A stretch of 50,470 nucleotides of DNA, counting the filler, from Bipalium vagum (Eukaryota), in NCBI GenBank assembly GCA_037834085.1. It is 3 parts of 3 records of this genome, joined end to end, with 100 filler letters (N's around TTAATTAATTAA, not from the genome) between each part and the next. Parts side by side here need not be neighbours in the genome. Positions count along the whole stretch, not along the records: positions 17,092 to 33,705 come from JBBMKC010102839.1; 2 more parts are not named here. One strand, given 5' to 3'. The first letter of the stretch is position 1. The number at the start of each line of letters is the position of its first letter. Under the pieces are notes generated by a model. The model ran no database searches. It was not told the DNA's origin and saw only the letters and a list, made by a program, of their open reading frames with translations. This document shows positions 12,201-43,714 of the stretch, piece after piece. The position numbers and the translations under genes are program-made.

Positions 12201-15200
12201 TTAATCCCGTACTCATTATCTTTGATTTCTAATTCAGTTAAATGATTATAATTTTGATTGATTTCAGCAAATTCCTTGTTCTTCATATTTATAAAATCAC
12301 TAAAACTATTATACTTTTCCCAAAAGTCCCCTGTCGACTTTTCAATTATTTTCAATTCAGAACTCAAGATTTCTCCACATTCTGAATTGATTTCATTAAC
12401 ATCACTGGAAATCTTTTCCAAATCCTTCAAGCTACTGTTCATTTTGTCCAGTTTACATTTCATTTCATCTAGATTTAAACAATTCTTATTTTCTTTCATA
12501 TAATTAAAGAAAATTCCCACATCTTTCAAGGATTCGCTTTTAATATTTTCAAACTCCTTCATCAAATTTTGTAATTTTTCTTCTTCTTCTTTCTTTTCTC
12601 TCTCAATATTTGTCAGTCTAATTTTATTCTGTATACACGATTCATTGACAGTGGCTATTTGATCAATATTAAGAAATCCTGTACACATTTCGGCAGCTCT
12701 TTGAATTTCAGTAAGATCTGACATAATAGCAGTTAGTTCCCCTAACTGTTCTGTCGACAAAAGTTTTGAATTTTTAATCTGAACCTGTTCGAATTGATTA
12801 ATTTGCTCACTGCATCTTCCCGATTTTTTTTCGAAATCCTCATAGAGACTGACTGCTTCAATAACAGGATTAATAACTATCTCGGCATGATCTATGAATT
12901 CATCTATTTTCTTGTTGAGTCCAATGCAAAGTTCAGGAATGTGTCCATTGAAAGCTGAATTTACATCACTAAGTTCAGATCGAATATCGGAAAGCATCTC
13001 AAGATTCGGTTTAACAAGATTCAATAAGATATTCAGATCATTAATTGTTGTAGTAGGAATTTTTGTTTTACTTTTCAGATCTTCAATGATTGGGTTCACT
13101 TGAGCTATGATAGATTGTACTTTAGAATCAGCTTGGATTAAATTATTTAATAAAATATCACTTTCCTTCTGTGCTTCTAGTTTTGAATTTAAAGAATCAA
13201 TATTTTCTTTGACTTTTTTATCTAGCAAAGAAATATTGTCTAATAAAGAGGCTATTTCTGTAATATTTGAGTATGGTCCATTATACGATATCAAGTTGAT
13301 TTGGTTTTCTAAATTTTGATAATTATCCTTCTCCTTCATTAGGATTTCAGTAGAAACCATTTCTACATTTTCAGAACATAATTTTCCATATTGAGAATTG
13401 ACTTTCTCGTAAGCCTCGTGGATCTCATTAATTGTCTCAACAATTTCCACATAAATTTTACTAAACTTATCTTTAATAGCTTGAACAGATTCCATCTTGA
13501 TGTCATTAATAGTACCTTCTTGAATATCAAGTTTTTTTATTTTGTTTAAAGTTACCATCATAACATCAGCATTTTGATTTGACCAGTCTAGGGCCTCCTT
13601 AAAGTTGTTGAGAGGTAATGTAATATTCTTGTCTTTTGTTTTTTCGATTAGATCTGTTAAATTTTTTAAAATTTCTTCTTTTGTATTATTAAAAATCTCT
13701 GATAAATTTTTAACCTCTTCTTCCTCTACACTAATTCTTGATTGTTGATTCGAAATTTCAAACAAAAGTGCTTTTATTCTATCCGTACAAGTCGTAACTT
13801 CATTGTATAAACCTCTGACTTCTTCGACATTCAGTCCGATTTTGTCCATTTCAATATTATCTGAAATTTCATTCAATTGGTTCAATATATCATTTGCTCT
13901 TTTCGATATAATACTCAACTTAATCAAATCATTATCTTCCTTAAGATCTTGTTCAAGAATATCGATTTTTTTCGATATATGTACCAAAAATTCTTTATTA
14001 ATACAACATTGATTTACGGTCTTCATCAATGGATTGATCATTGACTCTGTAGATTTTACACAATCATCAATTTTATTGCATATGGCAGTTTGAAATTCTA
14101 ACATTTGGGGTTGGACGAGTGGTTCCTCGAAATGGAGCTCGCTGACTTTTATTTGATTTAATGTATTATTGTTTTGAATGATGGTGTTCGTCAATAATTC
14201 AATATCTGTCAAAGATTTTTCTGGAGATTTTAGTAAATTTTCTAAATCTCTACTACAATTGTTACTATTTTCTAATAAAGCCTCAACTTCTTTGTTGGAA
14301 TCAACCATTTTCTCATGCTGACTGTCTGCTAACTTTAAGAAATTCAATAAATTATTCAATTCAATTTTTTTCCCATGTATTTTTTCTATCAATTGTCCAT
14401 CATCTTTTACAAATTCTTGAATTAATTGTTTTTCAAAATCATCAAGCTTATTTATCTGTAATTTCAGGGTGTGAATATTCTTTTCAATGGAAGTTGAGAT
14501 ATTTGAGTCATTTTCTTTTATGAGATCATCGTTCTTCAAATCGCAAATATCATTTATATTTTCTAGAAGGATTTTTTGATGCTCCAGAGTTTTAATATTT
14601 TTCGAAATCACTACTTTTAAATCTTTTATTTTGTGATCCATCTCTATAAAATTTTTATTATCATTGCTGGTCTTATAAAATTCTGCTCTTTCACTTATTT
14701 CTCCTAATTTTTTATCTAATTGGAGACTGAGTAAATAATTTTGATTTATGACCTCAATGTTACAGCTGTCCCATTCAGTTCCTTCCAAACGATTTTTCAA
14801 CTCATTGAGATCGTTTGATAAAATCAGTTGTTGTTTTTCTCTTTCTTGTACATTTTCCTTATTTTGAGAAACAGTACCTAATTTTTCGTCAATATACCTA
14901 TTTTTACTTCCAAGCTTAAATTTCAAATCCTCATACTTTTCTTGTATCAAAGGACTCAATAAGATTTGATTGTTTTTAAATTTCTCACAAACTTCTTGTA
15001 AATTTTCAGTTAATGTCACCATTTTTTCGTCGAATTTCTTTAATTGGCTTTTCATTAAAAATAGTTCTTCATCTCTTATTGCTTTTGATGATGTTTCATC
15101 AACTGATAATTCTAAGCTCTTTTCCGTTTCTTTAATTTCTTGAATAAAACCTCCACAATAATCAACTGCTATAATCTTTGATAAACATTGTTCACATATT

Positions 15201-16776
15201 TCTGAACTGTTCTTTAGACTCTTATCAATTTGCTTTGAAAATCTTTCATAAAATTTTGAAGTCTGAAACTCTTGGAGAAACAATTTCGACAAGCCAACTT
15301 TGTCATTAATGATTTTCATTTGATCATAGTACGAGTTTAATCGACTGATCAAGACTTCATAAATCAACTGGTTGTCAGTATTTATCATATCTTCAAAGAT
15401 CTGTAAGCAGATGTTATTAATTTCTTCTGTGATACATTGGTTTTCTTGTTCCATTTGATCTGAGAATAAATTGTCTATATCTTGGTTTATTTTGTCGATA
15501 TAATGACGAATTTCAACTGACAATGGATGAAGTTTGAAGTGAATAAGTAATTCTTTCAAATTATAAGGAATAAAATTTGAGTCCTCAGATTTATTAAACT
15601 GTTCAATGAATAAACCGAGATTTCTCTTATATTCTACGGATTCTGACATTTCATCAGAAATAAAATCGCCGAGAGTATTTGCTAATTCTTGAATTTTGGG
15701 CATTAGAGAATTTAGATCAAGTGTTTTTTCCTCATACTTTTGTTTCATCAAACCAGTATCAGAATATAAATTGTCTAGGAAATCCAACTTTAATCCAATG
15801 TTACTTTGTGAGAGTTTTCCGTTCTTGATAATAAATGTACAGTTTTCAACCCAGTCAGAAAGCAAAAATGAAGAGTTAACAAGAACGCAACAAGATTGTC
15901 TCCATTGTTCCAACTGTTCTATGTTATGAATATCTGCCAAACTTTTTGATAAATTGTTTATGTTTTCATTTAATCCCTTTAAATCATATAGTATTATATC
16001 CAATGACTCTTTGTTCCAATTAGGACAGCCTAACATCTCCAAATCACAATTAGTAAAAGCAATTTTTTCCAAGTTCCCATCCATTCTTTCTACTTTTTCT
16101 TCTATAGCCTTGACACAGGTTAATTTTTCGTTGTTGATAATATCTTGAACTGTAAAAAGTGGAACATTAAAAGTACTTTTATTGATGATTTCCAAATTAG
16201 TATCAATATTTGATATACATTTCTGAAAGATTTTTTGAAAAATTTCACTAATCACAGTTTTTTCTTTTTCTGATAGACTTTTCTCCTCTTTTTGGTAATC
16301 AGGTTCGTCTTTAGCTATTAAACTATTACTCTGGTCGGAAAATAATGACTGAACTGTGCTTGATATAATGACATCTTCTTCTGAAGTCATAAAGATGAGC
16401 GGATTATCTTTTTCTATCATTTCAGATTTATTTTCAATTGACAAATTAGTCTGATTGAACAACTGAATTGATTGAGATTCCACAAGGTCGCAAAGCATTT
16501 GAATATTCTCAATAGATGGTAGTATCATTTTAGCCACCTCTGGATCATTCAGCTCAATCTCAACAAACTTCGACTTTGAAATTTCAATAACATGGCTTTG
16601 TATAACATGGATTTGTTCAACAATTCTTTCTTGTTGTTTTAAGTCACTCAGCAACATGTTTTTAGAATTTCTTCCACTTTCTATGAATTGCTCAAGCTGC
16701 ATCTGCAGCAGTTTAATTTTTTCCGTTTCCTGTTCTACTTCTTCTTTGATTTTGATCGCTTGGGAAATTGTGGATC
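114..16776 (-). CDS. Partial multi-exon gene for a giant alpha-helical spectrin-repeat/coiled-coil protein (nesprin/ANC-1/Msp300 or spectraplakin-like). Exons 16776-8858, 8808-8500, 6967-6638, 3945-2875, 2763-2590, 2546-2403, 1640-1317, 1268-1095, 287-114; both ends lie outside the contig.
   Basis: All nine exons have AG/GT boundaries and splice in frame (all internal junctions phase 0), giving 10,619 nt with no stop. The protein is E/K/L/I-rich with heptad character and has spectrin-like Trp helices (YKRDIYEFSLWISNE, CILTWIESKR, DVLKWEKD, LLSDWVENC). The family call is an inference because no CH, KASH or GAS2 domain is in the window. Confidence 0.8.
500..900 (-). mobile_element. Degenerate mariner transposase fragment (intronic)
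   Basis: Minus-strand translation NVMFCVWLNFGGIIIFERISDGRTFNSDL (~640-743) resembles the mariner KVMLCVWW..GII..ELL...TINS block. Confidence 0.6.
1095..1268 (-). CDS. Exon of giant gene (MHHKSPIY...LAYVE)
   Basis: Follows a 48-nt intron; atAG|ATG and GAG|GTATTT boundaries. Confidence 0.78.
1317..1640 (-). CDS. Exon of giant gene (DILKKSTD...VNQMNE)
   Basis: ttcAG|GAT and GAG|GTTTTT boundaries; ORF 1299..1727. Confidence 0.8.
1746..2267 (-). mobile_element. Internally deleted Tc1-like element with both TIRs
   Basis: Inverted repeats TA|tgctcatcgtcaaaaattttaggtaggt and TA|taatcatcgtcaagagtcttaggcaggt, both TA-flanked. Frameshifted N-terminal paired-like HTH (ERCRIVGLFEAGLSQ...PKSGRLR) in ORFs 1938..2147 and 1739..2002. 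Confidence 0.8.
2403..2546 (-). CDS. Exon of giant gene, absent from the ORF track (KLVEELEIKK...YEHHLL)
   Basis: Follows a 43-nt intron; ttAG|AAA and TTG|GTAGGC boundaries; 144 nt, open frame. Confidence 0.8.
2590..2763 (-). CDS. Exon of giant gene, absent from the ORF track (DSNQSDD...YEFSLWISNE...SSVQ)
   Basis: ctcAG|GAT and CAG|GTAACA boundaries; 174 nt, open frame. Confidence 0.8.
2875..3945 (-). CDS. Exon of giant gene (MISIRLEEAAG...NGDIN)
   Basis: ORF 2845..3945; taAG|ATG acceptor and AAT|GTAGGA donor; 1071 nt. Confidence 0.85.
6638..6967 (-). CDS. Exon of giant gene (DLKIQLTEK...EKIQNTN)
   Basis: ttcAG|GAT acceptor and AAT|GTACAT donor; 330 nt; phase 0. Confidence 0.8.
7163..7700 (+). 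mobile_element. 5' relic of a pogo/Tigger-like DNA transposon
   Basis: TA|cacttaaacctcgttat TIR-like end with an internal repeat cctcgttataag; ATG at 7384 gives MNKRVRLNIQEKRK (psq-type HTH start). Confidence 0.5.
7850..8290 (-). mobile_element. 5' half of a mariner element
   Basis: ORF 7880..8074 (MLYEFHKG...FRRFRDGD..LE.RPGR) is the mariner HTH; TIR TA-TTGGGTCATTGCAAATGTTCGGGCCCGATTTT at ~8257-8290. Confidence 0.8.
8500..8808 (-). CDS. Exon of giant gene (CLKKGLACK...LFKENL); alternative in-phase donor at 8488
   Basis: ORF 8422..8805; acceptor ttAG at 8809-8810; phase 0. Confidence 0.75.
8858..16776 (-). CDS. Giant 7,919-bp internal exon of the spectrin-repeat/coiled-coil gene
   Basis: Corresponds to the 2626-aa ORF. 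Acceptor tttAG|GATCC at 16777-16778; donor GAG|GTTTGG at 8856-8857, followed by a 49-nt intron. Confidence 0.85.
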
Positions 16777-16861
16777 CTAAACATAAATAAATGTGTTTCT
16801 TGGTAAAAAAATAGTTGGAAAATAAGTATTTTTGAAATCTTTACATAAAATAATAAAAATA

Positions 16862-16991
16862 CACTACCGTGCAAAAGTATTGGGACACTTGATTTTTAAC
16901 GAGAAATATGCGTCAAAAACAAAAATTGACGTGATTAGAGATGCTAAATGTTCTTGAAATACAATACTATGTCCAGCAAATATAATATAAC
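16862..16991 (+). mobile_element. Tc1-type terminal inverted repeat truncated by the assembly gap
   Basis: TA|CACTACCGTGCAAAAGTATTGGGACAC. Confidence 0.55.
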
Positions 16992-17091
16992 NNNNNNNNN
17001 NNNNNNNNNNNNNNNNNNNNNNNNNNNNNNNNNNNTTAATTAATTAANNNNNNNNNNNNNNNNNNNNNNNNNNNNNNNNNNNNNNNNNNNN
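16992..17091. other. Assembly gap spacer N44-TTAATTAATTAA-N44
   Basis: Exactly 100 nt with an all-frame stop linker; identical spacer at 33706-33805. Confidence 0.97.
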
Positions 17092-17649
17092 TAAGATTAT
17101 ATAATCTTTTAGAAACATTAAATGAAAGAGTAATTTATTGTGATACTGATAGTACAATATTTATTGATGATTCTTGGGAAAATAAAAATTGTAGTCATGA
17201 AGAATGCGCGCCTGTTAGAAAAATTACAAGGAGAAAATTTAGGAGATTTAACAGAAGAAGTTGAAAAAGATGTTGGGATTGGATCTTATATAATAGAAAT
17301 AGTTGTACCTGCTCCAAAAGATTATCATATGAAAATTTGGAGTACTAATAAAAAAGAAATAGTTACATCAGATAAAAAAAAAGGATTTGTAAAAAATAAT
17401 ATTAATTCAAATAAACTAACTTTTGAAAAGAAAAGGAATTTAGTATTAAATAATCCATTTAACAAAAGCAAGGAAGAAAATTATGAAATCATTGAAAGTA
17501 TAAAATTTAAATTAACAGGAAATAGTTTTAATAATTTTAATAGAATACAAACAATAAATGAAATAAAAATGTATGATTTTGATTTTAATAAAAAACAGAT
17601 CACATATTTAGAAAATGGTAATGTAATAACTTATCCATACAAATATTAA
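17092..17649 (+). pseudogene. C-terminal part of protein-primed family B DNA polymerase (pPolB), frameshifted near 17220
   Basis: RLYNLLETLNERVIYCDTDS (YCDTDS at 17136-17153), then in the ORF frame GENLGDLTEE...YI.EIV.PAPKDY...KKKGF...K.YDFDFNKK...TYPYKY*. Confidence 0.9.
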
Positions 17650-18057
17650 AAATTTTATTGCTTAGAAAAAAAAATTGATTTACCAACATGCAAGTTGAGG
17701 GGGTTATTCCCCCAACTAACAACTTACCAAATAAAAAATATAATTGTTGGATGTCTATACCAAAAAATATTTGGTTTGAAGATATTGAAATTTGAGGGAG
17801 AAATTGTCCTCTAACTATAAACTTGTCAAATTAAAAAAAGTATACATATATAACAAACATTTATTTTTATTTACAATCATGAAAGGTGGGTGGCTAAAAA
17901 CCAACCACCCAACAACTCTTCAAATGAAAAAAAAAGTTTGTATATTTATACTAAAAAAATATTTGATTTATAAATATGTAAAGGTTAGTGAAATTTTATG
18001 TCACAAACTAACAAATTGACAAATTAAAAAAATAATTGTGGTATACCTGTAGTGTTC

Positions 18058-18153
18058 CATATTTTACTTTCATTATTAAAAAATGTGGCTATTACAAATA
18101 ACATCATATTTTACTTTCATTACTAAAAATGGGGTCATTACAAATGACCTCAT
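18058..18153 (+). repeat. Two imperfect ~48-bp tandem direct repeats upstream of the endonuclease gene
   Basis: catattttactttcattattaaaaaatgtggctattacaaataacat / catattttactttcattactaaaaatggggtcattacaaatgacct. Confidence 0.75.
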
Positions 18154-18179
18154 AAAAAAATCAAATTTTATTTTAAAAA

Positions 18180-18764
18180 ATGGCGAATACAAATTTAATT
18201 ACTGAAAATTGTCAAACTGTAAATTTAAATAAATGTTCACAATGTAATTTGATAAAACCTATTTCTGAATTTTATTCAAAAATGAATAAATGTAAAAATT
18301 GTCATAAATCTAATGTTACACAACATAGAAATATTCCAAAAAATAAAATAAAATAAAATATAATAATATAATATATAATAATAAATAGAAAACAAGAAAA
18401 TCCAATGTTATAACTTCAACAAAATTTATATACCAGTTTAAGTAGATGTTTAAAAGAACGTAGAGAATCTAAACATTCAGAAGAATTATTTGGTGGTACT
18501 CTTGATTTTTTATATGAGTGGATTGAGTTTCAATTTTAGGATGGAATGACATGGGAAAAGCAAGGATGTTTTTGGCACATTGATCATGTTCTTCCAGTTT
18601 CTAAATTTGATTTTGATAATAAAGATCATTTTAAAACATGTTGGAATTTGAAAAATTTAAGACCATTAGGAGCTGATAAAAATCTAAGTAAAAGTAATAA
18701 AATTTATTATAAAGAATATTTATTTCAAGAAATTAAAGCAAAGTATTTTGAAAAAGAATATTAA
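18180..18764 (+). pseudogene. Zn-ribbon plus HNH-type endonuclease of the giant-virus/phage MTWENYG-WHIDH family, disrupted
   Basis: ATG 18180 ...KCSQCNLIKPISEFY...KCKNC; after a frameshift, FLYEWIEFQF*DGMTWEKQGCFWHIDHVLPVSKFD...CWNLKNLRPL.ADKNLSKSNK. Confidence 0.8.
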
Positions 18765-19035
18765 AAAAACGGAAATATTTCATAATTATTTAAAATGGAT
18801 AAGATGAAAAAATTTATAAATTATTTTTTTCCAAATTTACCAAACTTTTGGCAATAAAAAAATGAAGTAAAAATTCGGGCGAAGTCCCAAGAGAGCAAAG
18901 TGCTCGTAAAAATTAATAAAAAAAATAATTATAATGAATTCAATAATTAAAAAAGCATTTTATCATATGATGAAAAAGTTTAAGAAATTTTGATACCATT
19001 TTCTTAACTATAGAAAATTCTTAAAAATAAAATTT

Positions 19036-20286
19036 TTATAATTCTCCCAATTTTGATTTAGTTTCAAAATTAATCATTTTTCCACCTCCAAGTTTTATTT
19101 CCATAAATTTCTCATGTAATAAAACATAATTTAAAAATCCTTTAAAATAATTTTCTTTTTCAATAAGTAAAGTTATTGTTGCTCCATTTATACATAAATT
19201 TTTTGCTTGATCTGTTAAATCAAAAAAAATATGGAATATAACTTCAAATTCTAATAAAGATAACTGTGGATCATTCTTAAAATATTAAGATGCTTCTACA
19301 TAATTCAAATAAGTTTCATCATTGTATCCTTTCTTAAAGTTTTTTGGTTTTAAAGGATAATAAGTATCAACAAGTTGAATTTGTAAAGATTTAATTTTTT
19401 CTTGAACAAATAAACTATTATTTTTTTTATTGCCAATATCTGATTCTCTGAAACCAATAAATAAATATATAGAAATATTAGGGATAATATATATATATTT
19501 TTATTGTTTGAATTGTTCCTTCAGTTAATTTTAATTCTAAATAGTTCTACATAGAAAATTAACATAAATATTTTTCTCATCACTCATTCTTGAAATAAGA
19601 TTTAATCTTGCTTAATTATTTAATTTTATTGATGGAATAATAATGAAAGTTTTTTCAATTTTATTTTTGGTTGTTGATTATCTAAAACTCCATGTGTTCC
19701 ATAAAAAATTTCTTTTTCTAAATTAGTTATTTTTCTTACTAATGTTATTTTTCCCTGGATATTATATAAAGCTTTTCTAAAATATTGCAAAAATCCAAAC
19801 ATTAATTTTAAAAGAAATCTTCCTCTGCATGTATTATTTGAATATAATCTATTTCTAGATTTAAAACCCGTATTTGTTTTTAGCTTCGTTCTCTTTAATT
19901 TTATCAGAAATCCAACCAAATAATTCTCCATTATTATTTTTATCAATCATTACAAAATTTGTTATGGAATTTGATGGACCTAATTTTTGAATAGTTTCTA
20001 TTTCTGTTGATACTAATTTTAATGATGTATTTGAAAATAATTACGGAAAAAATTTATTCTGTAATGTAATAATTTCTTCTGCCTTAACATTTTTAATTTC
20101 GATTTCATAAATAAAATATGCATTACATATTTCTAAAGAATTTGTTTTAGGTGTTATTGTAAATGTTAATTTTCCTGTATCATTTAAATTTTTTATTGTT
20201 TCTGGATCTAAGCTTACTTCATCATAATCAGTTTTCTCATATGTTGTTTTTCGATGATAGTAATTTTATCATAAAAAAACTTCCAT
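19036..20286 (-). pseudogene. Polinton major capsid protein (double jelly-roll), with stops and frameshifts
   Basis: Reconstructed blocks: NLNDTGKLTFTI..NAYF; TLQNKFFP*LFS...EIE...G; FGW...NTGFKSR...LKLMFGFLQYFRKALYN...TLVR; YLFIGF...NNSLF...YYP...LSLLEF...FFDLTDQ. Size ~415 codons. Confidence 0.8.
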
Positions 20287-20419
20287 TTTTTTATAAAAAA
20301 ATATAATTTTGCAGTAAAGCAGCTTTTTGCTTAGAGAACAAAGTTCTCGCTGTTGGTGACTTCATCACTAATCAAATGCACAGCTTTGCTGCTAGTTCAA
20401 CTTAGTTGAATGCTGATGA

Positions 20420-21155
20420 AATTATCTTTTTTGTTTCTAAATTTATAAAAAAAATAATTATATTTTTATTTTTATGAAAGTTAAATAAATAATCAAATTC
20501 TTCTTTTTCAACAAAATGAGATAACATTTTTGAATAAATTTGATTTATCATTTTTAGAAATTTCAAATAAAATTAAAACATTGGAATTTTTTTTATTCCT
20601 TCTTAATGGTAAATCAAAAAAAGATTGTGATAAATATATTACTGAACATTTATTATGTCTTCCTCTAGTGAAATACTTCCATTATATATTGAATTTTTCA
20701 TTTATTACATCATCAAATATAATTAAGTTTTTAACATTTTTGGAAACATTACATCCAAGAGCGAAGCTCGTATTTAATTTATCTGGTGGTTGAATTTCAT
20801 TTGTTTTATCAGATAATGTCACTTTTATTTCTCTTTCTTTATGTTTATAATTTTTTTCATAAAATTTATATATATTTTCATTTTTAAACAGTTGGCAAAC
20901 TTCATCTTTTGATAATCCATAATCAAAAAAATCCTTAATATATTTTAAAGCTGGTTGAAGAAAAGCAGTTTTAGAAAAAATAATCAAATTTTTATAATCA
21001 ATATAATCTTTTTTTAATAGCGTATTATATAATAACACTGTTTTTCCTGAACCAGAAAGACAAATTATCAACATTCTAAAAATTGAAGGTAGATTAGAAT
21101 GATGTTTAAATTTTACAGAATTATTATTTAAGAAATCATCACAATACAATTCCAT
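20420..21155 (-). pseudogene. A32-like (FtsK/HerA superfamily) DNA packaging ATPase, frameshifted; 3' end approximate
   Basis: LPSIFRMLIICLSGSGKT (degenerate Walker A) and NLIIFDD (Walker B); after the frameshift, KYFTRGRHNKCSVIYLSQSFFDLP. Confidence 0.9.
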
Positions 21156-21259
21156 TTTTTAAAATATAATTTGACTTACTATTATTAATATTTAAACTTT
21201 TTTGAGGTGCAGCTTACCTTACAAGCTAGCCTTAAGCTCTATCACTTTTTGAAAGCAGG

Positions 21260-22056
21260 TTATATCTGCTTTAAGTGAATTTTCAAACTAATTTCTTCTC
21301 CATTAAAATCTATTAATTCTCTGTTATCATCAATTATTCTAAAATTTATGACATAAATATTTGTTGTAATCACAGGAAAATAAATCGGAAAATTTGGTTC
21401 TTTATTAATTTTATATTCTCTTTTAATAGTATTCGTAGGAAAATCATAAATAATAGTGTTTTTTATTATTAAAATACAATCCACTTACAATATCACAATC
21501 AACCATAATTGTATTTATATCTGAAATATTAACTTTTTTAGAATAATAAACTTCTTCTTCATAAGAATTTTTAACTTCAAATCATAAAAAATTTGCCAAT
21601 GAATTTTGAACAAGAAAAGATATTTTGCAACCTTTAGATATTTCCATGATACAGTTTGCAGAAATTGGATTAGCAACAATCTTAAAATAAAATTTCTTTT
21701 TCTAAAGATACTAGATCTTTGTCATATTTAAATTGGTACTCGATTGAATTAGAAATATCTGAAATTTCATATGCTCCAGGACCTAGTTTGAAATTTAATT
21801 GTTTATTTTTACCTATTGAATCTGTAATATCTAAATTGATTCTATTATTTTTTCAGTAACATTCAAAATTGAATTATAAGTGGAAAAATAAACTAAACCT
21901 AATTTATAGTTTATATTGTCTTTAAGTTTTAAAGGATAATCTAATCTTAATTTTTCTTTCTGAACTATTTCTTTTTATAAGAAATGATGTTGAAAATTTT
22001 TCAGATAAAAGGTTTGTTATTTTTCTTAACGATTAGGAAGCTCCACTAGATTACAT
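21260..22056 (-). pseudogene. Polinton minor capsid protein (penton, single jelly-roll), disrupted
   Basis: YPLKL...YKLGLVYFSTYNSILNVTEKNN...GAYEISDI...VNISDINTIMVDCDIVSG...IIYDF...YKI.KEP..PIYFPV...RIIDDNRELIDFNGEEISLKIHLK. Confidence 0.85.
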
Positions 22057-22069
22057 TTTTAAATTTATT

Positions 22070-23048
22070 TTTTAATAAAAATCTGTAAGTAAAATTTTTT
22101 TTGTTTCTTTTATTCAAAATATTTTCATAAACCTTTGGTTTAATTCTTTTTTGTTTTTTTAAATTTATTTAAAATTTTTAAGAATAAATGATCAAGATTA
22201 TCTTGTCCAGGTTTTTTAGCAGATAAATATTTTAAAGTTACAAACTGATCAAGTGCATACTGAGGTTTCTCAATTTCATAACATTCTCCTTTTTTTATTT
22301 CATTTTTTTCATTAAATTTATTTTGAATATTTTTCATATATATTGAATTCATAGATCCTTTAACATATCTTATTAGATATTAATAATTATGCAAATCTTT
22401 TAAACTATAATCTCGTTCAATTATTCAAAAAAATATTAGCATAATCTTTACCTTCAATTAATGATTTAAAACCTTCTGATAACACTCCAGAATCTGGTTC
22501 ATTTTGTTTCTTAAAATTTATTTCAGTACCAATTTTAAATAACTCAAAAGAAATTTTATTTATTGTTAAAATATTTTTTTCAATTGATGGTTTAAGCGAA
22601 TTTGGTAACTCTGGATTGATATGAAAATAGTTTTCAAAATTAAAATCATATTTAGGAGGTTTTTCAATTTTATGAGTAAACAATTTTTATTCATTTTGCT
22701 CACTAATGTCTTCAGTTAAAATATAAGTATTTTTGTCCAATTTTTGATTTCTTTTGGCAAAAGTCACTGCGTCTTTTTTAGTTTCTTTTTCGATTTGTAA
22801 TTTTTTTTCTTTTTTATCTAATTTAGCTAGTTTTGCTTGAGTACCGAGGGTGCTAGTGCCATGGGCATGCTTAGATTTATCAATCGTATCAGTAACTGGT
22901 TTATGAAAAGTTGTTAAATTTTCTTCTAATTCTCTTTGTGCTTTCATTGATTTACTATTTTATTATTAAAATTTTCTACTATTGTTATTAACTTTTTTAA
23001 TATTTCAATTTCATTTTTATTATCAATTACATTTTGTTTTGGGTTCAT
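22070..23048 (-). pseudogene. Uncharacterised Polinton protein (coiled-coil N-terminus with FHKPVT motif), split over ORFs 22687..22947, 22417..22683 and 22140..22352
   Basis: Three abutting same-strand ORFs after a TAAAAAATG start; LEENLTTFHKPVTDTI resembles the F-K-P-[IV]-T motif of a conserved Polinton ORF (recalled, not searched). Confidence 0.55.
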
Positions 23049-23299
23049 TTTTTAAAAAATAAAATAAGTATAAAATCGTACTATAAAAAATCAAAATAAT
23101 TTGTAGAAAAAATTGTCAACAATAAATCATTTTAAACTTCTTCCCATGGGAAAGTAAAATATTCAATTTCCAAAAATCATAAATATCTTGAAGAGAATTT
23201 ATTTCTGTATTTTTTAGTTCTGGATGAATTTCTAACAAACATAAAATTTTAATTAACTCAAATATTTTTTATTATTTAACTCACTCATTTTTTAATATA

Positions 23300-23940
23300 T
23301 CTTTTATATATATTTTTAATAAATTTTTAGTCTCTTTCGTGGTTGAACCACTAGGCTGTTTCACAGATGCTCTATACTCTTTTTTAGTTCTATTTTCAAT
23401 TCTTTTTTTGCTTCGTTTTCTAAATTTTCAATAATATTTCCCGATTTGATCTTTTTAATATTTTCTATACATTCACAAATTTCTCTGTAAAGTATTTTTC
23501 GTTTAAAAGTTATTCCTATGCTAATTGTTTCTGCAATAACTCTGAAGACCTAAAATACTAGTTGTAAGAGAAATATATATTAATAAACTAGTTCCAATTG
23601 TTGGTACATCAGACATAATCGCTGATCCAATTCCTAAAACACATCCATATCTTAAAAATGAATCTATTTTAGTATATTTAAATTTTAATTTTTTATAATG
23701 TTGTAATAAATTTTTTAATACTTTTTTCTCATTCGTAAAATTTTCTATTTTCATTTTTTCCAATTGCGTGATAATAGGATTATGATAAAACTTCGCTGGA
23801 TTTAATAATGGATTAGAGAATTGAAGATCCTCCATGAACTTCGCTTGATTAGAAAATCCTTCGTCAACTTCACAGGCAAAATTGTTTTGTAAAACAGGAT
23901 AAATAGGAGCAGTTGGTTTTTCAATTTTTTCAATTTCCAT
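23300..23940 (-). pseudogene. Predicted membrane protein of the Polinton (possibly the adintovirus 'gasderminX' class) with N-terminal PTAP-IYPVL
   Basis: ORF 23521..23940: KPTAPIYPVL, basic helix HYKKLKFKY, then two hydrophobic Gly-rich segments; basic tail after a frameshift. Confidence 0.55.
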
Positions 23941-23959
23941 TTTTAAATAAGAAATTTAA

Positions 23960-24809
23960 AATTTCAGGGAGTAGACATAGACTATAAAAAATTTACAAGA
24001 AATTTCTCAGAACGCTACGTTAAAGCATATATTAAGATAGAATCTTTTCATAAAAACTTCAATTTCTTTCAGTTGATTGTTTAATAAAAAATTATGAAAA
24101 ACTATAATATCATAAATTTTAATATTTGCTGAATTAAATCTAAATTTATAATTACCATTTGATGGAAAAATTGTTGAATATTTTTCTTCTGAATTATAAA
24201 AAAATGTGAATGCGATTTAAAATTTAGTGGTTTATTACAACGTAAAAATATTATATCAGTTCCTGTATATATTTTTTTCTTGAACAAAAGTTTTTCCAAG
24301 AGGTCTTCCATTAACCATAAAATAATTCCTATAAATATTATACCAACCAAAAACATGATAATTATTTGTTGTTCCAAAATTAATAATGGTATCGGCACGG
24401 AATTTTGGAATTGAGTGAAAGATGGCGGAAGACGATAGACTACGACGGATTGTATTTTGAATATTAATTATACTTGTATTTTTTGTTTTGACTTATTTTA
24501 ATTTTTTCAAAATAGTGTCTAAAGACTTATGGGACACCCTAATATCAATTTCATAATTGATTTTTCTACAACTAAAACAATTGTAAATTCGAGACCTTTG
24601 GTTTCAAGAGCGGAGCCTGCATCTTTTATTTCTGCTATTAACTCTCCTTGAAAATATCCAATATCATTTTTATAAATTCTTAACAGACTAGAGGTTGTCT
24701 TTTCAGTAGTAATTTCAGATGTAAAAGATTTCCAATACGATCTCCATGAAATAGGATTTAATTTTTATATTATTCATTAATTTCTGAATCTTCAGATACT
24801 TTATTTCAT
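23960..24809 (-). pseudogene. Unknown Polinton ORF interrupted by a mariner fragment
   Basis: TAAAATG start at 24809; fragmented coding-like sequence on both sides of the insertion. Confidence 0.35.
24390..24542 (+). mobile_element. 3' end of a mariner element inserted in the Maverick
   Basis: HGILELSERWRKTIDYDGLYFE matches the mariner C-terminus; right TIR gacttatgggacaccctaa|TA. Confidence 0.7.
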
Positions 24810-25145
24810 TTTAGAAAAAATGTGGAATTTTCCGTTTTTTACCCTGCAGGAATGGAAAAGTCCCACTAAATCATTTTTTAGTTGTTGGATTTTATTTTTT
24901 ATTATCTAAATATTCACACTCCATTTAAGAGAAAATTTGATTTTTATTAAGAGACTCTGTCTCTCAAGAAGCGAGTTTTCAGTTCTTGCACTTTCAGTGC
25001 GCGAAGCTTTGTATTTTTTTTTACTTATTTATTTTTTATTAATTTTTTAAACATTTTTGAATTTTTTATTTTTTAATCATTAAAAAGAGTAGTATGTAAT
25101 TTTATTCTTTTTCTTCTTATTATTATTATTCTTATTATTTTTTTT

Positions 25146-25258
25146 ATATCTCCAGCATATCCCGCCAAAAATATTTTTTTGAATAATCGTGTGCACACGC
25201 ACACGTGAATGAAAAAAAATTTTTTTGAGGCGCGGGATATGCTGGAGATATTACTACT
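25146..25258. repeat. Maverick terminus with subterminal palindrome (perfect 20-bp arms) and terminal AGTAGT
   Basis: ATATCTCCAGCATATCCCGC (25146-25165) / GCGGGATATGCTGGAGATAT (25232-25251), then TACTACT ending at 25258. Confidence 0.85.
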
Positions 25259-25912
25259 ATTGTTTTCTGTTATTATTTTGATCAATTTGATCAACGATCA
25301 ATTTTATGGAGATTATTTTGATTCAATAGCGCGATTTTACAGTAAAGTCTTCGTGGTTATTTTGATCCAACTGAGGATGAATTTTCGAGGTTATATAGAT
25401 TTAATGGATATGATATCAAAAAAGTGAGGAGTTAGGAAAGTTCAAGCTTAAAGTTACATATTCCATTGAATCCATAAAAAATTTATAATTTATTTTATTT
25501 TTGAGATTAATCAATTATTTTAAAAAAATTTTTCAACTGTTAATTTACGATTATGTTCAATTCATTAGTTTACAATTTATAAAATTTAGTTTTTAATTTT
25601 AATTTAATCTTTACAATTAATATTTTTGCATATTCTGGTTTATTAATCCAATTTGTTATTTTCATTTTAGTTTGAAAAAATGATATATCTTTAGTGTTTT
25701 CTCAAATTTCACAAGAACATCCAGATTTTCCTTTTCCAAAAAATGTGATTTCGAAGCTTTATTAATATTTTTTAATATTCATACTTGAGTAAGTCATTTA
25801 AATCATAAAATAAAATATATTCAGATGAAACTTTAACCTTAGTGATCAATTATATTCTGTACCAGTATGAAATTAATAAAATATGTTTGTAGAACTGTTT
25901 TGATCAAAATAT

Positions 25913-28900
25913 CTATTCAGGTGGTTCGACACAGACTTTTATTGCCAAATGTTTTGATGGGATCGATAATAACACTCTAAAAATATATATTATTCATATA
26001 TTGTTACACAATATTTTTATTGCTAATTTAATCGAGATTTTAAATAATAAACCTCCAAAATTCATTACAAGACCTAGTTTTATTAATTTTTTGATAAGTG
26101 AAGTAGAGGAGAAATTTACTAAAAATAAAAATGATTATATATATGATCAAATGTGTTCTTTACCCTACAAATAAAACGAGTTTTGATAAAATTATAAAAT
26201 TAATAACTCTTTAATATTTAGCTTCATTAACCATGAATATTTTCAAGTACTTCAGGCAAATTTCAGGAGATAATGACGAAGGTTGTCGGTTGTATAAAAG
26301 GAGTAATGGTCTATCTGGACGACTTATTAGTGTTTACGGGAACTGAAAGTGAGCATTATAAGGTTCTGAACGAAGTACTAAGAAGAGTGCGGGAAGCTGG
26401 ACTAAGGATAAATACAGAAAAGTGTCACTTGCTGAAAGAGGAAATTAAGTTCTTGTGTCATGTGGTGAGTAGAAAGGGGTTAGAGACAGACCCTTCAAAG
26501 TTGGAGGCGATTAAAATTTCGAAAGGCCAAAATGTGCAAAAGGATTGAGAAGCTTTTAGGGATCTGTAACTATTATAGAAGATTTATAAAAGAATACTCG
26601 AAAAGATCTAGGCCCTTGCAGAGAGTGTGTGGAAAGAGTAAGAAAAATTAATATGGACACTTGAGATGGAAGAAGCGTTCAAGGAGATGAAAAAAGCATT
26701 AACATCAAGTCCCGTTATTAAGAAGGAATTTATTCTAGATACAGATGCAAGTTTTGATTCAATAGAAGCAGTTCTATCTCAACTGGACGAAAATGAAAAA
26801 GAACGAGTGATAGCATACGGCTCTCACGCCATGAGCAGCCATGAAATTGGTTACTGCATTACTTAAAAGGAATTACTGCTCATTTGTTACTTTTGAAATC
26901 ACTTTTAACATTATTTATACTGAAGGAGGTTCAGGCTGAGAACGGAACATAAAGCAATCAACTTCATGATGAGTACTAAGAAGCCGATCACGTCGCAATT
27001 CCAAACGAGGATTAATTACTTGAGCAGTCTTGACATTAAGTTCGAATACAGGAAGGGTTCGATACATACGAACGCATATTTGTTATCTAAACCAAGATGC
27101 GAAACATGTAGTCACTGCCAATTAGTGCATGAGGAGGCGAAGAAGGGAAAGATGAAATTCAGGATGTTGGATGCAATAAGCACAGAAGACATTAAAGATG
27201 CAGAAAAGAACTTGATATGACATGTTCGTACATTGTTGACTCATGTAGATACTGAGAAGGTCGTGGAATATATGAAGGGGAAACATGATATAAAGGGTTT
27301 GTGAAGTAAAGTACGGAGGGTATTGTCAGGGTACTAAGCGTTTCAGAAGCATAAAGTGGTTATATCAGCAACAAAAGAGGCCACAGTGAAATTGTAAGCA
27401 TCTGAAATGTTTGAGAACATTTATGTCGACATCTGCGGTCCGTTAACGGAAACCAGGAGGAAGAAAAAGTACATCCTAGGCATAATAGATCAATACAGGA
27501 AATAGATCTGTTTAACTGCGGTAGCAAGGCAGGACGAAGAGACAATTATAGAGAAATAAAAAAAGTTTGGTTTTCAAGTCACAAGACTATCAATGTGGAT
27601 GGCGCAAAAACATTTGAGTCAAAGAAGATGGCAGAGTTCGCGAAAAGTAAAATTCAGAACTACGGTTCTCAAGTCAATACCACCATAACACTAATGGCCA
27701 GATCGAACGGCAATTTAGAACTATTAGGGAGAGACTAAATGCAGCTAAAGCAGAACAAAGAAGGAAGGATTGGGTGGAACTATTGTCAGAAGTTGAGTTT
27801 TCATTTAATGCAACAACGCAGAAGACGACAGGATGGAAATTATATTTGGCAGGGGCATAGACCGAGAAAGAGGGTATCCGTCGAGAAAGAAAGTGGATAT
27901 AACGGAAGTGGAATAGATGACGAAAAAGATTTTTGAAGTTGGTGAAAAAGTCCTGGTCAAAGTGGAAACGAGGAACAAGGACCAGCAAAGACACGAAGGT
28001 CATTATTGAATCCAAAGAAAGATACATGGAAGACGGTATTTGATAGAACACGCAGATGGAAGAATTCTGGAGAGGAACGATGAGAAGTTAAAAAATTATT
28101 GAGAAGGGGATATAAGGAGTGATTAGAACAATTAGTTTGCTTGAATTTTTTTAAATAAGGACCTCACACCTAAATTAACAATTATTAAATGTTTTTAATT
28201 TAAAGTTTTTAAAAATTAAATTACGTTTTTAAAGATATTTAATGAAATATTTTAAATAAATATTAATAAATTTTAAAAAGGTAAATAATTTAATTTTAAA
28301 AAATGGTGAAATTCAAGTTTGAAAAGTTTGTTTGAGTAATCGGATTTATTGAAATATCTTATCATTGCTTTGATTTTGAATTATTATTTAAAATGACTAC
28401 ACAAGAATATAACTAATGTTATAAAAAAATTGATCAATTAAACAAAAACACTATATAATTCATCATTCTGACTAAAACTAAAAAAATTTTTTTATAATCA
28501 CTTTGAACCGGGTTTTTAAAATTGTGCAAAAAATTAATAATATATAAAGTTAAATAAAAAATATAAATTTAAGAAAAAAAAATTTAACAAATAAAATTAC
28601 TTGATTCCTGATCTAACTCGATAAAAGCTCGATGCTTGTAGGTTGATAATTTGAGAGTCAACAGTCAATGTCGCGTTTCCTTTCTGGAAATTTTTAATAT
28701 AATATAAATTTAATAATATAATATATAATAAAAAACTGAATATTTATTAAAGTTTGGTTTATTGTTTTACCAAAATGTATTGGTTATCAAATTAATTTTT
28801 AAAAATTTTCACATAAAAATCAATTAAGTTTGTAATAGATTGTAATTAAAATTCGACATTCGAATTATAAATATAAAGTATTGATCTTCATAATTAATGA

Positions 28901-31900
28901 ATAAATATTTTTTCACATTTTTTTATATTTTCTAACATTTCGTAAGATTGATTCACCTAAAAATGTTCTAATTCTCCATAATTTATTTTTAAATATATAG
29001 TACATTTTAACTAACGTGGCTGTTAAAGTATAGTAATATATTCAAGTAGAATTTTTAAGTTTTTAAAAACCGTAAAAAAATAAAGTTTTAAAGTTAATTA
29101 ATTTTCAATTAAATAAAATATAAATAAAAAATAATATTTTTTTGAAAATATAATTTTAAAATCGTTGTTTAAATTTATTTGTATTGTTTTAATTTTGAGA
29201 TTTTTTGGTTAATAATTTTAGATATGTGGCTTGATACATAGCAGGTTAACAGCAAAACCAGATGCTTAAAATCGAAAACATCAACAGATGCTTTTTATTG
29301 AGATTAATGTCGATAAAATCTAAGCAAATTTTATGAAGTGTGAGACTATTTGCCAGTCTTACCTGCGTTTAATTATTAAGTTTATAAGTATGACTCTGAT
29401 CTTAGGATATATTTTAGATTGACAGTGAGGACCTTTGTCCATCTTTCAAACAACAAGTTGATTTGAAGAAAGTAAAACAGGTTCCTTAAAACAATCCATC
29501 CATCAATCCAATTGTGAAGTTCTTCACCGGAACTGAACCATTTATCGGAAAGTTCTGATTGCAGCGAGTGGACCATATGGAAATCCAAAAGATTGATATC
29601 TGATGATGTAAAAAATCTCACCTTGTACCTTCTAAGTAATTCTGAACAACTGAATGAAAATTTTGTCTCGTGTTATGTTACTAAATTATTTTTTCATGTT
29701 TGTCCACATATTTTGGTCTTCTCGGTCAGGGGTTGCTTCAAAAAAATTAATCGGCATCGAAAATGTTTAGCAATTATGGTTTCTGGTGGTTTTTTTATCT
29801 TATAATAAATTAAACCTTTTTTATTCCTTCAGATGTATAGCATAATTTTAGTTTAATGGACATTTTGTTTGGCTGTTGATGCACCGGCTTCATCCAAGTA
29901 TATTTGGTTTTAGGATTGTCACAATGAATCAATTTTTGTCTTTAAGAATCTTATGTAAAATCCTTTTTGTCTCTGAGGAAAGACATCACAAATTATATTT
30001 CGTTTTTCAATGTCTTTCCCCGCCAACTTAAATGGGACCCATTTCCATAATTTAAATAAAATATTTTTAAACAAAGTCATGTGTGAATAACTGTTTAATG
30101 ATGTTTAGATTACAAATAAATATAATAATTTAATTTTTTAAAAGAAATTTTAACATATTTTGTAAAATCCTGAGTTATACTTACACACCTAATATAAGGA
30201 CGTCGATATAAATTCGGGAAATTCATAATCTTAATAAAAGATGTAAATAGACAATATAAATCTATAGGTAATAATCGAGAAGACTGCACTTAGAGATCGA
30301 AGGTGGTCATAAATCAGGTTACCAATGATAGGGATGATTTCCGTAAAGCAATGATTGTGTTTTCCTAGCTTTATTGGCAGGAGCAGTCTTCTTGGAAGTT
30401 TTACTTTCCCACGGAATTTTTCATCAATCCACGGTTTTTACAACCACGTCACAACACATAAAAATGTAAGTATTCACCTTGAGATCACGTGGCATTATTT
30501 GGCCTTCATTGCCTACCACATCTTAGAACTTAAGGAAGTTGGAACTTCAGAAACACGTTTGCAGATCAAATAGTAATTCTAGCAATTAACTTTTCTGGCC
30601 TGGATGAAAATCTTTTCGTCAGAAGAATCTGAGGAAACCAGTGCTCTCGCACTTCAAATCATTCACCAAGACGGAGACTTTTATTTTTCTTTTGAATTTA
30701 CTTCTCTGTCAACGCACGTTGGATTTGTAAAATGTCATCAGTTATGGCTACTCTCACAGTTGACTTGTTCACACTCATCTCCTTTACCAGATCGCTCATT
30801 TAACACCATCTTCATCTATTTTAACTTTGAAATTAATCAAGAATTCCTTATTTCGTTTGAGGTCAGATAGTTAATTGGGAATTTTTTTTGAATTTAAATA
30901 TATGTCCTTTGTTTTGGCATAAATTTTTACCAACTCACAAACTTGGGTCTTGTTGCATCAAAACCATCTAAGTATTTCTTTTGGTTTTTTCCAGTGCGAA
31001 GTAATTCCAACACCAGCGCTTTTCGGTCATATTCTGAATCTGTAACGAATTTTAAATAATTCAAAATTGATTAATTAGCTTACTTAAACAAAAAAATTTA
31101 ATGATTACTCAAAGAATTTTCTTTTAATTTTGAAAATGTTCCCGATTTATCTCGACGCCCATGTACATGCAGTATTTCAAAAAAAGCTTTTCACTTTAAG
31201 CCAATAAAATTTTTATTTACCAAAGTATTATTTATTTTTATTGAATAAAGAATAATGTCAAATATTAAGTATATAAATGATTTCTGTAGCCATTCTTTTC
31301 CAGATTGTGTTTTTGTTTCAGTATAATAATGATATGTGATCTATTTATATTTTTATGTCATAAAATTATTTTTTTCTGTAATAAAAAATTAATGTATCCA
31401 AATTTTATATATAAAAGATAATTATTTTTAATTTTACCACGATTTAAAAAGTGAAAGATTAAATTTAAAGAATAGGAAATTTGGTTATATACTTTATTTA
31501 AAAATATATTAACTTACATACATCCAAATTATTGTATCATAGTTGTTGATAATGTCAAATTTTCCGTTACTAAGAATCTGAACCTAAACGAAATTAATTT
31601 TTATTAAAAATAAAATAAATTAAATTAAATTAATAGAGTAGTCAAAAAGTTTCAGTAACTTTTAGAGAAATATTCATACTGAATACAAAATTATTTGAAT
31701 GAGTTTTATTCATCGAAATACAATCCTTCATGCTCAATTGTCTTCAACAATTTTTCAGTAAGCCGTATGAGACAATTTTGATATCAGATCGTATCTTTGG
31801 ATGCAAAGAGTTTGCGATATACTATTCAATATGATTGAAATTTAAAAATTTCCTTCATTTCATAAATGTGGACATTGACCACAATAGTTTGAAATCTGGT

Positions 31901-33556: not shown

Positions 33557-33634
33557 CTTAATAAAATATGTTTTTCAATTTAAACATTTTCTATTACAAT
33601 AAATTAATTTAAATTACAAGGATTTGAGAATGAA

Positions 33635-33636
<2 letters not shown>

Positions 33637-33705
<69 letters not shown>

Positions 33706-33805
33706 NNNNNNNNNNNNNNNNNNNNNNNNNNNNNNNNNNNNNNNNNNNNTTAATTAATTAANNNNNNNNNNNNNNNNNNNNNNNNNNNNNNNNNNNNNNN
33801 NNNNN

Positions 33806-37950: not shown

Positions 37951-37992
37951 TAATAATGGGTTTTATTAAATAAAATAATAATAGAAATTAAC

Positions 37993-38132
37993 CTTATAAT
38001 ATGCAACAGCTCGAAGAGAAATCGTGGCTACATAGAGAGCATTGGTGGCAAAATCAAGAAGATTCCACATATCCATTATATAACATTTGACCCCGGCGAC
38101 CCATAGTTCTTTAACTTCTTGCCATATAAAAC
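37993..38132 (-). CDS. Internal exon of a TRPC-family (trp-gamma/TRPC4/5-like) cation channel, S2-S3 region; absent from the ORF track
   Basis: taAG|GT...AAG|GTTAAT boundaries; translation (G)[46 protein letters not shown] matches the TRPC GFIWxExKxxWxxG..Y..DWWNLMDF..N.LY.ATI.L motif. Confidence 0.92.
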
Positions 38133-38289
38133 CTTAATAAAATTATAACTTTAAGTAAGCTATTAATGTGAAATATATAATTATGTTTATATTTTAACCA
38201 TTAATATAAGTTAAGAGAAGGAATAAGGTAAAGCGAAATGCAAGAATACAAGTCTTGTAAGCCACTTTAGTATAAATTGATAAAAATAA

Positions 38290-42432: not shown

Positions 42433-43714
42433 CACAGGTGGAAAAAAATGAGGCTTACACAAAAAAAAATATTTTTATAAAAATCTTTAAATTGGTTAAC
42501 ATTTATTACCTTTTTAATATTTAAGCTATTTCACATAATATGTATGTAATTTGGTGTTTTTGTTATAAATAAAATGACTAAGACACATTTAAATGTCGAA
42601 AGAAAAATTCGGATATGTGGCCTTTGTTACACAAAACTGTCATATCTTGACGTGCAGAATATTTTGAAGAAACATGATATTCAAATTCCATTATCCACAA
42701 TACAAAGAATTGGCTACCAGTTCAAAACAACAGGTTCTATAAAAAGAAAACCAGGCTCAGGCAGACCCAGAAAAACTACAAATCAAGATAACAAAAGACT
42801 GAAATTTGAGGTCATTAAAGATAGTAAGAAAACTAATACAAAATTAGCTGAGGAATTCAAAAATGGAAATAATGAAACAGTTTCTCGAAAAACAATTGCA
42901 AGACGAGTCAAAGAATTGGGGTTTGCGTCTATGCCTTGTTCAAGGAAACCATTTTATTCAAAAAATAATATTAAAGACAGATTAAATTTTTATAATCTTT
43001 ACGATATGTATGATTCTCAGTGGTTCTAATATGTGTTCTGGAGTGATGAATGTCGATTTGAACTTCATAGTGATGCCTCTGAACGCTGTCTTCGAAGATC
43101 AAGTGAAAAATATGTAACCTCAAAAAACATGGCGCTGGGGGAGTTATGGTTTGGGGAATATTCTCAGCATCTGGAGTTGGTGAACTTATACGATGTACTG
43201 GGTCAATTAATGCCAAAGAGTACCAAAGGATATTAGATATTGAATTGCTTCCAAGCATTGAAAAGTTATGCACGGAAAATGAAAGACAATATATTATTTT
43301 CCAACAGGACAATGCACCGGCGCACACAGAAAAACAACAAAATCATGGTTGAAGAAAAAAGGTGTACCGGTTAAGTTTTGGCCTGGACAATCGCCAGATC
43401 TTAATCCCATTGAGAATAAATGGTCATACATTAAGGCAAAACTAACCGGGAAAATTTTCAATACTCCTGACCAACTGTGGAAAGCAGTCTAGAAAGAATG
43501 GAAAATCATTAATACAGAACATTGTCAGAGACTATCACATAGCCTACCCAAACGGCTCAAGTTGCTTAAATTGGCCAAATGGAAATATATCCCTTATCAA
43601 TATTTTTTATTTAGTTAATGATATATTGTTTGAAAATTTTTGTAAAATTGTTAAAATAAATGTCATAATATATGATATAAATTATGTAGGCCTCGTTTTT
43701 TTGGTCCAGGTGTG
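42433..43714 (+). mobile_element. Full-length (~1.28 kb) but inactivated Tc1 (DD34E) transposon
   Basis: TA-flanked imperfect TIRs cacaggtggaaaaaaatgaggcttaca / cacacctggaccaaaaaaacgaggcctaca. Transposase from 42574 with [46 protein letters not shown]; stop at 43027 and frameshifts. Confidence 0.93.

Follow-up and report, generated by a model that had tools for sequence, protein, structure and literature searches.

Remains of a probable capsid-encoding Maverick/Polinton genome in the DNA of Bipalium vagum

Gene content of the locus

The window analysed here is a 50,470-nt stretch of the Bipalium vagum assembly GCA_037834085.1, composed of parts of three records joined by filler. Its middle part (JBBMKC010102839.1, window positions 17,092 to 33,705) carries at 17092–25258 a block of broken virus-like genes that is most probably the right-hand part of a Maverick/Polinton genome. 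The window is AT-rich overall, and the block itself has 22.4% GC. The left edge of the block is the exact edge of a scaffold gap (17092). From there, the tail of a pPolB gene and a nuclease gene on the plus strand converge on an opposing run of genes headed by the major capsid protein (MCP), with a reversal of AT skew at about 18.9 kb, between the two modules. An earlier account, made from the DNA sequence alone (the sequence-only reading), had proposed this layout for 17092–25258; homology searches with reversed decoys bear out the order and strands of pPolB(+), HNH(+) and the opposing MCP, A32 ATPase and penton(-). The features are as follows.

16992–17091, scaffold gap (N runs and a 12-nt linker), interrupting the element within pPolB
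17092–17649, plus strand, C-terminal tail of pPolB, a family-B polymerase (L040+L081 profile, PHROG match)
17666–18039, no strand, intergenic degenerate tandem repeat of about 191 bp with small GC-rich hairpins (blastn self-match of 69% over 169 nt; folding)
18180–18764, plus strand, zinc-finger and HNH nuclease of the endonuclease VII type, in a single frame with four internal stops
19036–20286, minus strand, double jelly-roll (DJR) MCP pseudogene, shifted in frame two or more times and with several stops
20402–21155, minus strand, A32/FtsK-type packaging ATPase pseudogene carrying a single stop, a single frame change and, compared with its relatives, an insertion of 10 codons
21260–21974, minus strand, pseudogene of the single jelly-roll minor capsid protein (penton), split into five pieces, its 5′-end undefined and possibly reaching about 22056
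22417–22959, minus strand, likely FKP-motif conserved Maverick protein, broken, probably running a few hundred bases further downstream
23361–23955, minus strand, possible membrane protein, broken (hydropathy peak 1.56)
24010–24764, minus strand, broken open reading frame (ORF) of unassigned family without a family match, the first gene from the right end
25146–25251, no strand, terminal fold-back with perfect 20-bp arms (25146–25165 and 25232–25251) in a stem of about 45 bp
25253–25258, plus strand, ACTACT, the likely right terminus, directly followed by ATTGTT
33706–33805, second scaffold gap, with an identical linker

Capsid and packaging genes

Direct Pfam scans of the MCP and penton pieces returned no capsid families, and intact relatives were therefore needed to identify both genes. 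A word-index search with the MCP piece gave none among 166 candidates, and the Atlas search with it gave no usable match. An exhaustive phmmer search of 1.84 billion proteins with the piece at 19629–19946(-) returned three matches, all carrying Pfam DJR-like_dom, though only P0029, at 1e-25, exceeds the cut-off. The MCP region 20265–19051(-) aligns with residues 10–410 of P0029 at 36% identity (tblastn E 2.5e-56). Nineteen P0029 relatives were found among 6067 candidates, each with DJR-like_dom and none of them named. A profile built from 16 of these 19 recovered six collinear pieces among the 2122 pieces of the window, five at E ≤4e-12, against a best reversed decoy of 1.2. Because a piece of the window was the starting point for that profile, a further MCP profile was drawn only from loci fetched with the ATPase, which removes the circularity; four pieces of the MCP were recovered with it (E 9e-7 to 0.037). 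Modelled with AlphaFold, P0029 (predicted local distance difference test, pLDDT, 86.8) matches PBCV-1 Vp54 (5e-15) and the mavirus MCP (1.5e-13), as well as the Sputnik MCP and a MELD-virus protein.

The ATPase is 61% identical to its best match, P0001, over 21155–20408(-) (tblastn E 1e-75). Of 160 candidates, its 158-codon piece (20685–21158, minus strand) retrieved 28 proteins; Pfam Pox_A32 is present in 26 of these, and the frame itself, with X placed at the stop, matches Pox_A32 at 1.1e-9, above the curated cut-off. The nearest ATPases are unnamed or hypothetical proteins. Scans of viral_contigs with the ATPase piece, the MCP alignment and the L040 pPolB, and of genome_contigs with the MCP and ATPase, confirmed no loci. 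The motif GCGAAGC, which forms mini-hairpins, occurs three times in the window, twice within the element (20761 and 25001), and one of these copies lies in the 10-codon insertion of the ATPase. Small GC-rich hairpins are also present in the intergenic gaps 18878–18908, 20310–20415 and 21200–21260.

In related loci, the ORFs 3′ of the ATPase match the window at 21947–21263(-). A penton profile made from 26 of the 27 ORFs found, with one row fused to an ATPase dropped, detected five collinear pieces at 21944–21266(-) with E-values from 3.8e-14 to 0.024 (the best reversed decoy scoring 2.1). For the intact penton of locus L011, the predicted structure (pLDDT 84.7) matches the mavirus penton at 1.4e-10 and the adenovirus penton base at 6e-7. 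The sequence-only reading had set beforehand, as its refutation test, a comparison of the proteins from 19036–20286 and 21260–22056 with jelly-roll capsids, and both match such relatives.

Polymerase tail and adjoining nuclease

What remains of pPolB is approximately its last 185 codons; the TPR1/TPR2, terminal-protein and OTU domains belong to the missing part. A profile of L040 and L081, two of three locus ORFs with a Y.DTDS motif, matches two pPolB pieces (E 3e-8 and 1.4e-6; reversed decoy 2.4). The window piece matches the PHROG DNA polymerase at 7.9e-4, and L040 and L081 match the same PHROG at about 1e-12. A profile of the L001/L002-type polymerase has no match in the window. The pPolB called by the sequence-only reading is present, its extent reduced to a C-terminal tail, and that reading correctly placed its two motifs in broken frames: YCDTDS belongs to a piece of 74 codons, and RGRH to one of 57 codons past a stop. 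An additional pPolB fragment, suspected at 25893–26174 from a loose motif likeness, was rejected, as both the profile and Pfam came back empty there.

Adintoviruses are assigned to Alphadintovirus or Betadintovirus by PolB class, with an N-terminal OTU domain, and by accessory genes (PLA2X in Alpha; GasderminX or Cupiennin in Beta). The L040/L081 polymerase type would be the Beta class. No Pfam PLA2 match was found in 35 element pieces, and no PLA2 or pX-like gene was detected, in an element that lacks one half and whose genes are decayed.

The HNH piece, with X placed at its stops, matches phrog_1035 (endonuclease VII) at E 4e-13 over residues 17–188. Nucleases are given as the fifth commonest gene class among these viruses in text from 10.64898/2026.10.13.758929, and as often adjoining PolB in a section of PMC11296320. 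The nuclease beside pPolB would probably be a homing-type or conflict nuclease.

Genes towards the right end

The three genes to the right of the penton are less clearly identified. For the FKP-motif piece the profile gives E 0.0028 (decoy 3.1), its 15 seeds having themselves been chosen by motif; the FHKPVT protein of the sequence-only reading is retained as a likely assignment, weaker than first claimed. The membrane protein fared worse: its comparison with the Maverick membrane family (E 1.8) is no better than the decoy (0.17), and the Atlas gave leads below 0.9 only, SLATT among them, leaving the hydropathy peak for what had been stated more firmly. The ORF at 24010–24764, which had been listed as of no recognised family, indeed has no match in Pfam, PHROGs or NCBIfam.

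The right end and its fold-back

The block closes with ACTACT at 25253–25258, followed by ATTGTT, at the position where an AGTAGT terminus had been called; the hairpin next to it, with its 20-bp arms, had been missed. The motif pair (AGT)2//(ACT)2 is the commonest Maverick end motif in the account of PMC8097293. By the end-motif criterion of (AGT)2//(ACT)2 or (AG)3//(CT)3, the element matches at one end only. ACTACT alone is weak, with five occurrences on the plus strand of the window. It sits 1 nt outside the fold-back, which is the sole inverted repeat of its kind in the 50-kb window and folds as DNA at -42 kcal/mol (z -11.6, 100 shuffles). No second copy of the hairpin occurs in the window, and its arm has 0 matches in viral_contigs. 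Comparable hairpins were found in 0 of 19 loci of at least 5 kb, a survey that is uninformative because none of the 19 is known to include its own terminus. The terminal repeat probably includes the fold-back.

On its other side, the fold-back is bracketed by a second AGTAGT at 25088(+), with a TTA-rich run between this motif and the left arm. Because of this motif, two structures are conceivable: an end that is palindromic from the very first base, or a 171-bp unit that is a separate miniature inverted-repeat transposable element (MITE). Under the latter view, 25088–25258 or 25146–25251 would be an independent insertion, and the true viral right end would lie elsewhere or have been lost. The unit is edged by AGTAGTA...TACTACT, the hairpin arms are TA-flanked, it is single-copy in the window, and a matching target site duplication (TSD) is absent whichever view is taken. 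Against a MITE, ACTACT would be expected within 10 nt of the hairpin by chance with a probability of only about 0.001 (a post hoc figure), it lies about 490 bp past the last gene, inside the 46–1447 bp range of terminal inverted repeats (TIRs) given in PMC8097293, and neither profiles nor Pfam detected viral sequence past it at 25259–26236. We consider a separate MITE unlikely.

Decay of the element

All five well-identified genes (pPolB, HNH, MCP, ATPase and penton) contain stops or frameshifts, while the adjacent 8-kb host exon is intact, and on this basis the element is a fossil, as the sequence-only reading had held. This copy is no longer able to make its proteins. For each profile position the gene spans measure 2.96 and 3.02 nt, close to 3 nt per residue, which rules out introns and agrees with the earlier description of an intronless block. 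Decay of this sort is usual for the family, with 96% of vertebrate Maverick loci decayed in the figures of PMC8097293.

Genomic setting

The window is animal DNA as judged from a TRPC5/TRPC4/TRP-gamma-like channel exon at 37969–38133(-) (E 5e-15), past the second gap, and from gypsy and Tc1 remnants. Its AT content and TAA microsatellites would suit a flatworm. One sequencing run shares 0.53 of the sampled words, with no RNA data set listed, a figure given no weight as evidence here. On the left contig, an unbroken frame of 2672 codons occupies 8822–16840(-), with a splice-acceptor-like site at 16777. The corresponding exon, 8822–16776(-), comprises 2650 uninterrupted codons, is rich in Glu, Lys and Leu, and appears by eye to be coiled-coil or spectrin-like; it has no Pfam match and no significant PDB match. 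The element likely lies in an intron upstream of this giant exon (16776–8822). Other likely exons are at 8422–8808, 6518–7084, 2845–3960, 1299–1742 and 33268–33579.

About 1 kb beyond the Maverick end lies a decayed pol of a gypsy long terminal repeat retrotransposon (26237–28100, plus strand; 38% GC), with reverse transcriptase at 3.7e-13 and RNase H at 1.8e-15. The interval of about 1 kb between them (25259–26236; 22% GC) includes a 93-codon frame at 25893–26174(+) without a family match. A decayed Tc1/mariner transposase is present at 42550–43492(+) (HTH_Tnp_Tc3_2, 3e-12), and mariner-like scraps were seen by eye near 29382–29672, 43991–44420 and 46067–46387. The sequence at 16860–16991(+), preceded by TA and single-copy in the window, presumably resembles a Tc1-type terminal repeat. 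The left contig stops soon after it, and the gap may therefore hold more than the left part of the Maverick.

Relatives and gene order

A quick MCP tree was built from 27 intact proteins, namely 16 of the 19 P-numbered relatives and 11 of the 19 MCPs from the L-numbered loci, those shorter than 300 amino acids having been dropped. The P-numbered proteins form one clade (Shimodaira-Hasegawa-like approximate likelihood ratio test, SH-aLRT, 93) separate from the canonical loci, and for all five window MCP pieces the top six matches fall within that clade, as expected of a clade that was found from the window. For the ATPase, 57 sequences entered a FastTree: 30 rows (31 chosen of 86 loci), 26 of the 28 retrieved proteins and the natural window piece. 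In it, the window joins P0001 (98) and P0002/P0003 (100) within a 26-row clade (97) from which L001 and L002 are excluded. P0002 and P0029 are each from an ENA contig 3977 bases long, probably one and the same; if so, that contig would be the closest intact relative having both ATPase and MCP.

The gene order of the window is FKP–penton–ATPase–MCP. Among 42 loci with both ATPase and penton, the penton lies downstream on the same strand in 40 and on the other strand in two, and none has the window-like penton–ATPase order. Literature searches outside Repbase and subscription journals returned no paper on a penton–ATPase order or a fold-back Maverick end. Related loci hold this gene set together as well, and some of them also carry an rve integrase. 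The pairing of this polymerase type with a related ATPase also occurs in L040 and L081 and is thus not unique to the window; polymerase replacement and module swapping are documented in text from 10.1101/2023.08.22.554363. In locus L011, a 528-codon frame (1560–3143) scores both as ATPase and as FKP-motif protein and is possibly a fusion.

Identity, history and alternative explanations

Taken together, the genes and their layout point to the right-hand part of a capsid-encoding Maverick/Polinton genome in animal DNA, likely inserted by its own integrase and since decayed, a reading to which we give a probability of roughly 0.88. The element works like a Maverick and very likely is one: of the defining features, the visible part shows pPolB, the DJR MCP, the penton, the A32 ATPase and one end motif, and none speaks against the assignment. 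Two converging modules and (AGT)2//(ACT)2 ends are described as typical of Mavericks in PMC8097293.

Several observations weigh against this assignment. As the sequence-only reading had noted, integrase and protease are not seen: an integrase profile of 16 ORFs found none in the visible element, its best match (E 0.48) being the neighbouring gypsy integrase, and an adenain-type protease profile of 10 ORFs had no match in the window at E ≤5. The pPolB is a short tail detected with a two-sequence profile, whose members L040 and L081 were first spotted through a window match and hence not blind. Neither a left end nor a second TIR partner nor a TSD was found in the window, the left part falling in the gap, and none of three AGTAGT/AGAGAG sites left of the gap is preceded by ATTGTT. 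The link from the element to the left contig, giant exon included, depends on the scaffold join, and the TRPC exon is separated from the element by the second gap. Homopolymer runs of at least 7 number 37 in the element and five in the host exon, so some frameshifts could be sequencing errors, and no second copy of the element was seen in the one window examined. The missing part starts inside pPolB and has room for an integrase; the protease may lie there too, and some Polintons lack it, as stated in part of PMC4028283.

The unseen integrase in the visible 8.2 kb and the non-canonical gene order would also suit an integrase-less MELD/adenovirus-like or Polinton-like virus (PLV) captured passively in host DNA. 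Integrase-less MELD viruses are mentioned from Hydra and spider data in PMC8502044, and integrated PLVs without a detectable integrase in PMC11296320. The window MCP, however, falls in Pfam DJR-like_dom together with Maverick MCPs, the penton and FKP genes are of Maverick type, and the end bears a Maverick motif, making passive capture improbable. An intact or extrachromosomal element whose breaks or position are assembly artefacts is less probable still. The draft scaffold with its linker gaps, the many homopolymers, and a contig that stops inside pPolB, as happens with collapsed repeats, would fit such an artefact, but homopolymer slips do not explain the in-frame stops in four genes (MCP, ATPase, HNH and the FKP gene), the 8-kb exon nearby has no breaks, and the element runs without interruption into repeats and introns of host type over 25259–33705.

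If the Maverick assignment is right, the history may be sketched by analogy with other family members. While still intact, the ancestor would have been excised from host DNA and copied as linear DNA by protein priming from its terminal repeats. The ATPase would have packaged this DNA into an icosahedral shell built from MCP trimers, with pentons at the vertices. Re-integration through a retroviral-like integrase, leaving a 6-bp duplication, would have been followed by decay in host DNA. Planarian Polintons are named as piRNA targets in PMC8532177.

The sequence-only reading further suggested a probably undescribed virus lineage. The data are consistent with one, as the nearest MCPs and ATPases are unnamed in a comparison that lay outside Repbase and the adintovirus reference proteins. 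The stronger version, in which the fossil stands for a lineage of animal polintoviruses at subfamily level that has not been described, is speculative and, as a whole, doubtful. Such a lineage would have separate clades for capsid and ATPase, a reshuffled penton–ATPase–MCP module, a swapped-in polymerase class, an endonuclease VII beside pPolB and ends folding back from AGTAGT. If true, it would point to a hairpin-assisted priming or end-resolution step outside the standard Polinton model.

Comparison with known elements

The element shares pPolB, the A32 ATPase, the DJR MCP and the penton with Mavericks/Polintons (Polintoviricetes, Amphintovirales, Eupolintoviridae; adintoviruses), along with intronless converging modules, an (AGT)2//(ACT)2 end and decay in host DNA. 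It differs in having an MCP and ATPase outside the canonical animal-type loci, in the order FKP–penton–ATPase–MCP, and in a visible part without integrase or protease. The core gene families are also common to the six canonical animal-type Mavericks compared (L001, L002, L015, L023, L058 and L079; from IMG/VR and JGI), in which the order is instead ATPase–penton–core–membrane–FKP–core–MCP, with pPolB next in tandem in L001, L002 and L058. The canonical animal-type pPolB profile fails on the window, whereas the L040/L081 type matches. L002 (1–14755) and L001 (1–14109) are themselves intact Mavericks of the animal type, close to complete and listed among the IMG/VR viral contigs, and L002 encodes an rve-chromo integrase, PLA2-like and pX-like proteins and a pPolB containing Endonuclease_7. 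Four Schmidtea elements represent planarian Polintons from Repbase; by the listing in Table S1 of PMC4028283, all four have penton and ATPase and three have the MCP, in a host that is likewise an AT-rich invertebrate.

The best matches come from unnamed relatives: the MCP clade of P0029/P0032, with window pieces at up to 54% identity, and the ATPases P0001–P0003, the best of them (P0001) at 61%. L011 and L086 share the FKP–penton adjacency of the window but, unlike it, place the ATPase before FKP; L011 also has a zinc-finger ORF similar to that of the window. All of these relatives are without host data. A capsid/ATPase clade known from host-less metagenome fragments only is now tied to an animal genome, which aids host assignment and the classification of Polintoviricetes, and the terminal fold-back offers a concrete lead on how linear Maverick genomes handle their ends.

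More distantly, the mavirus virophage also has a pPolB with a nuclease nearby, and its DJR MCP and penton folds are alike, although structural-alignment identity is only 9–14%, its host is a protist, and its nuclease is of the GIY-YIG type rather than endonuclease VII. Decayed Mavericks with capsid genes are routine and very common as a kind, and insertions of Orthopolintovirales have already been reported in many invertebrates, flatworms included, according to text from 10.1101/2025.04.19.649669. The kind itself is known; the present element would be a new member of it, with a divergent capsid clade, an altered gene order and an unexplained terminal fold-back.

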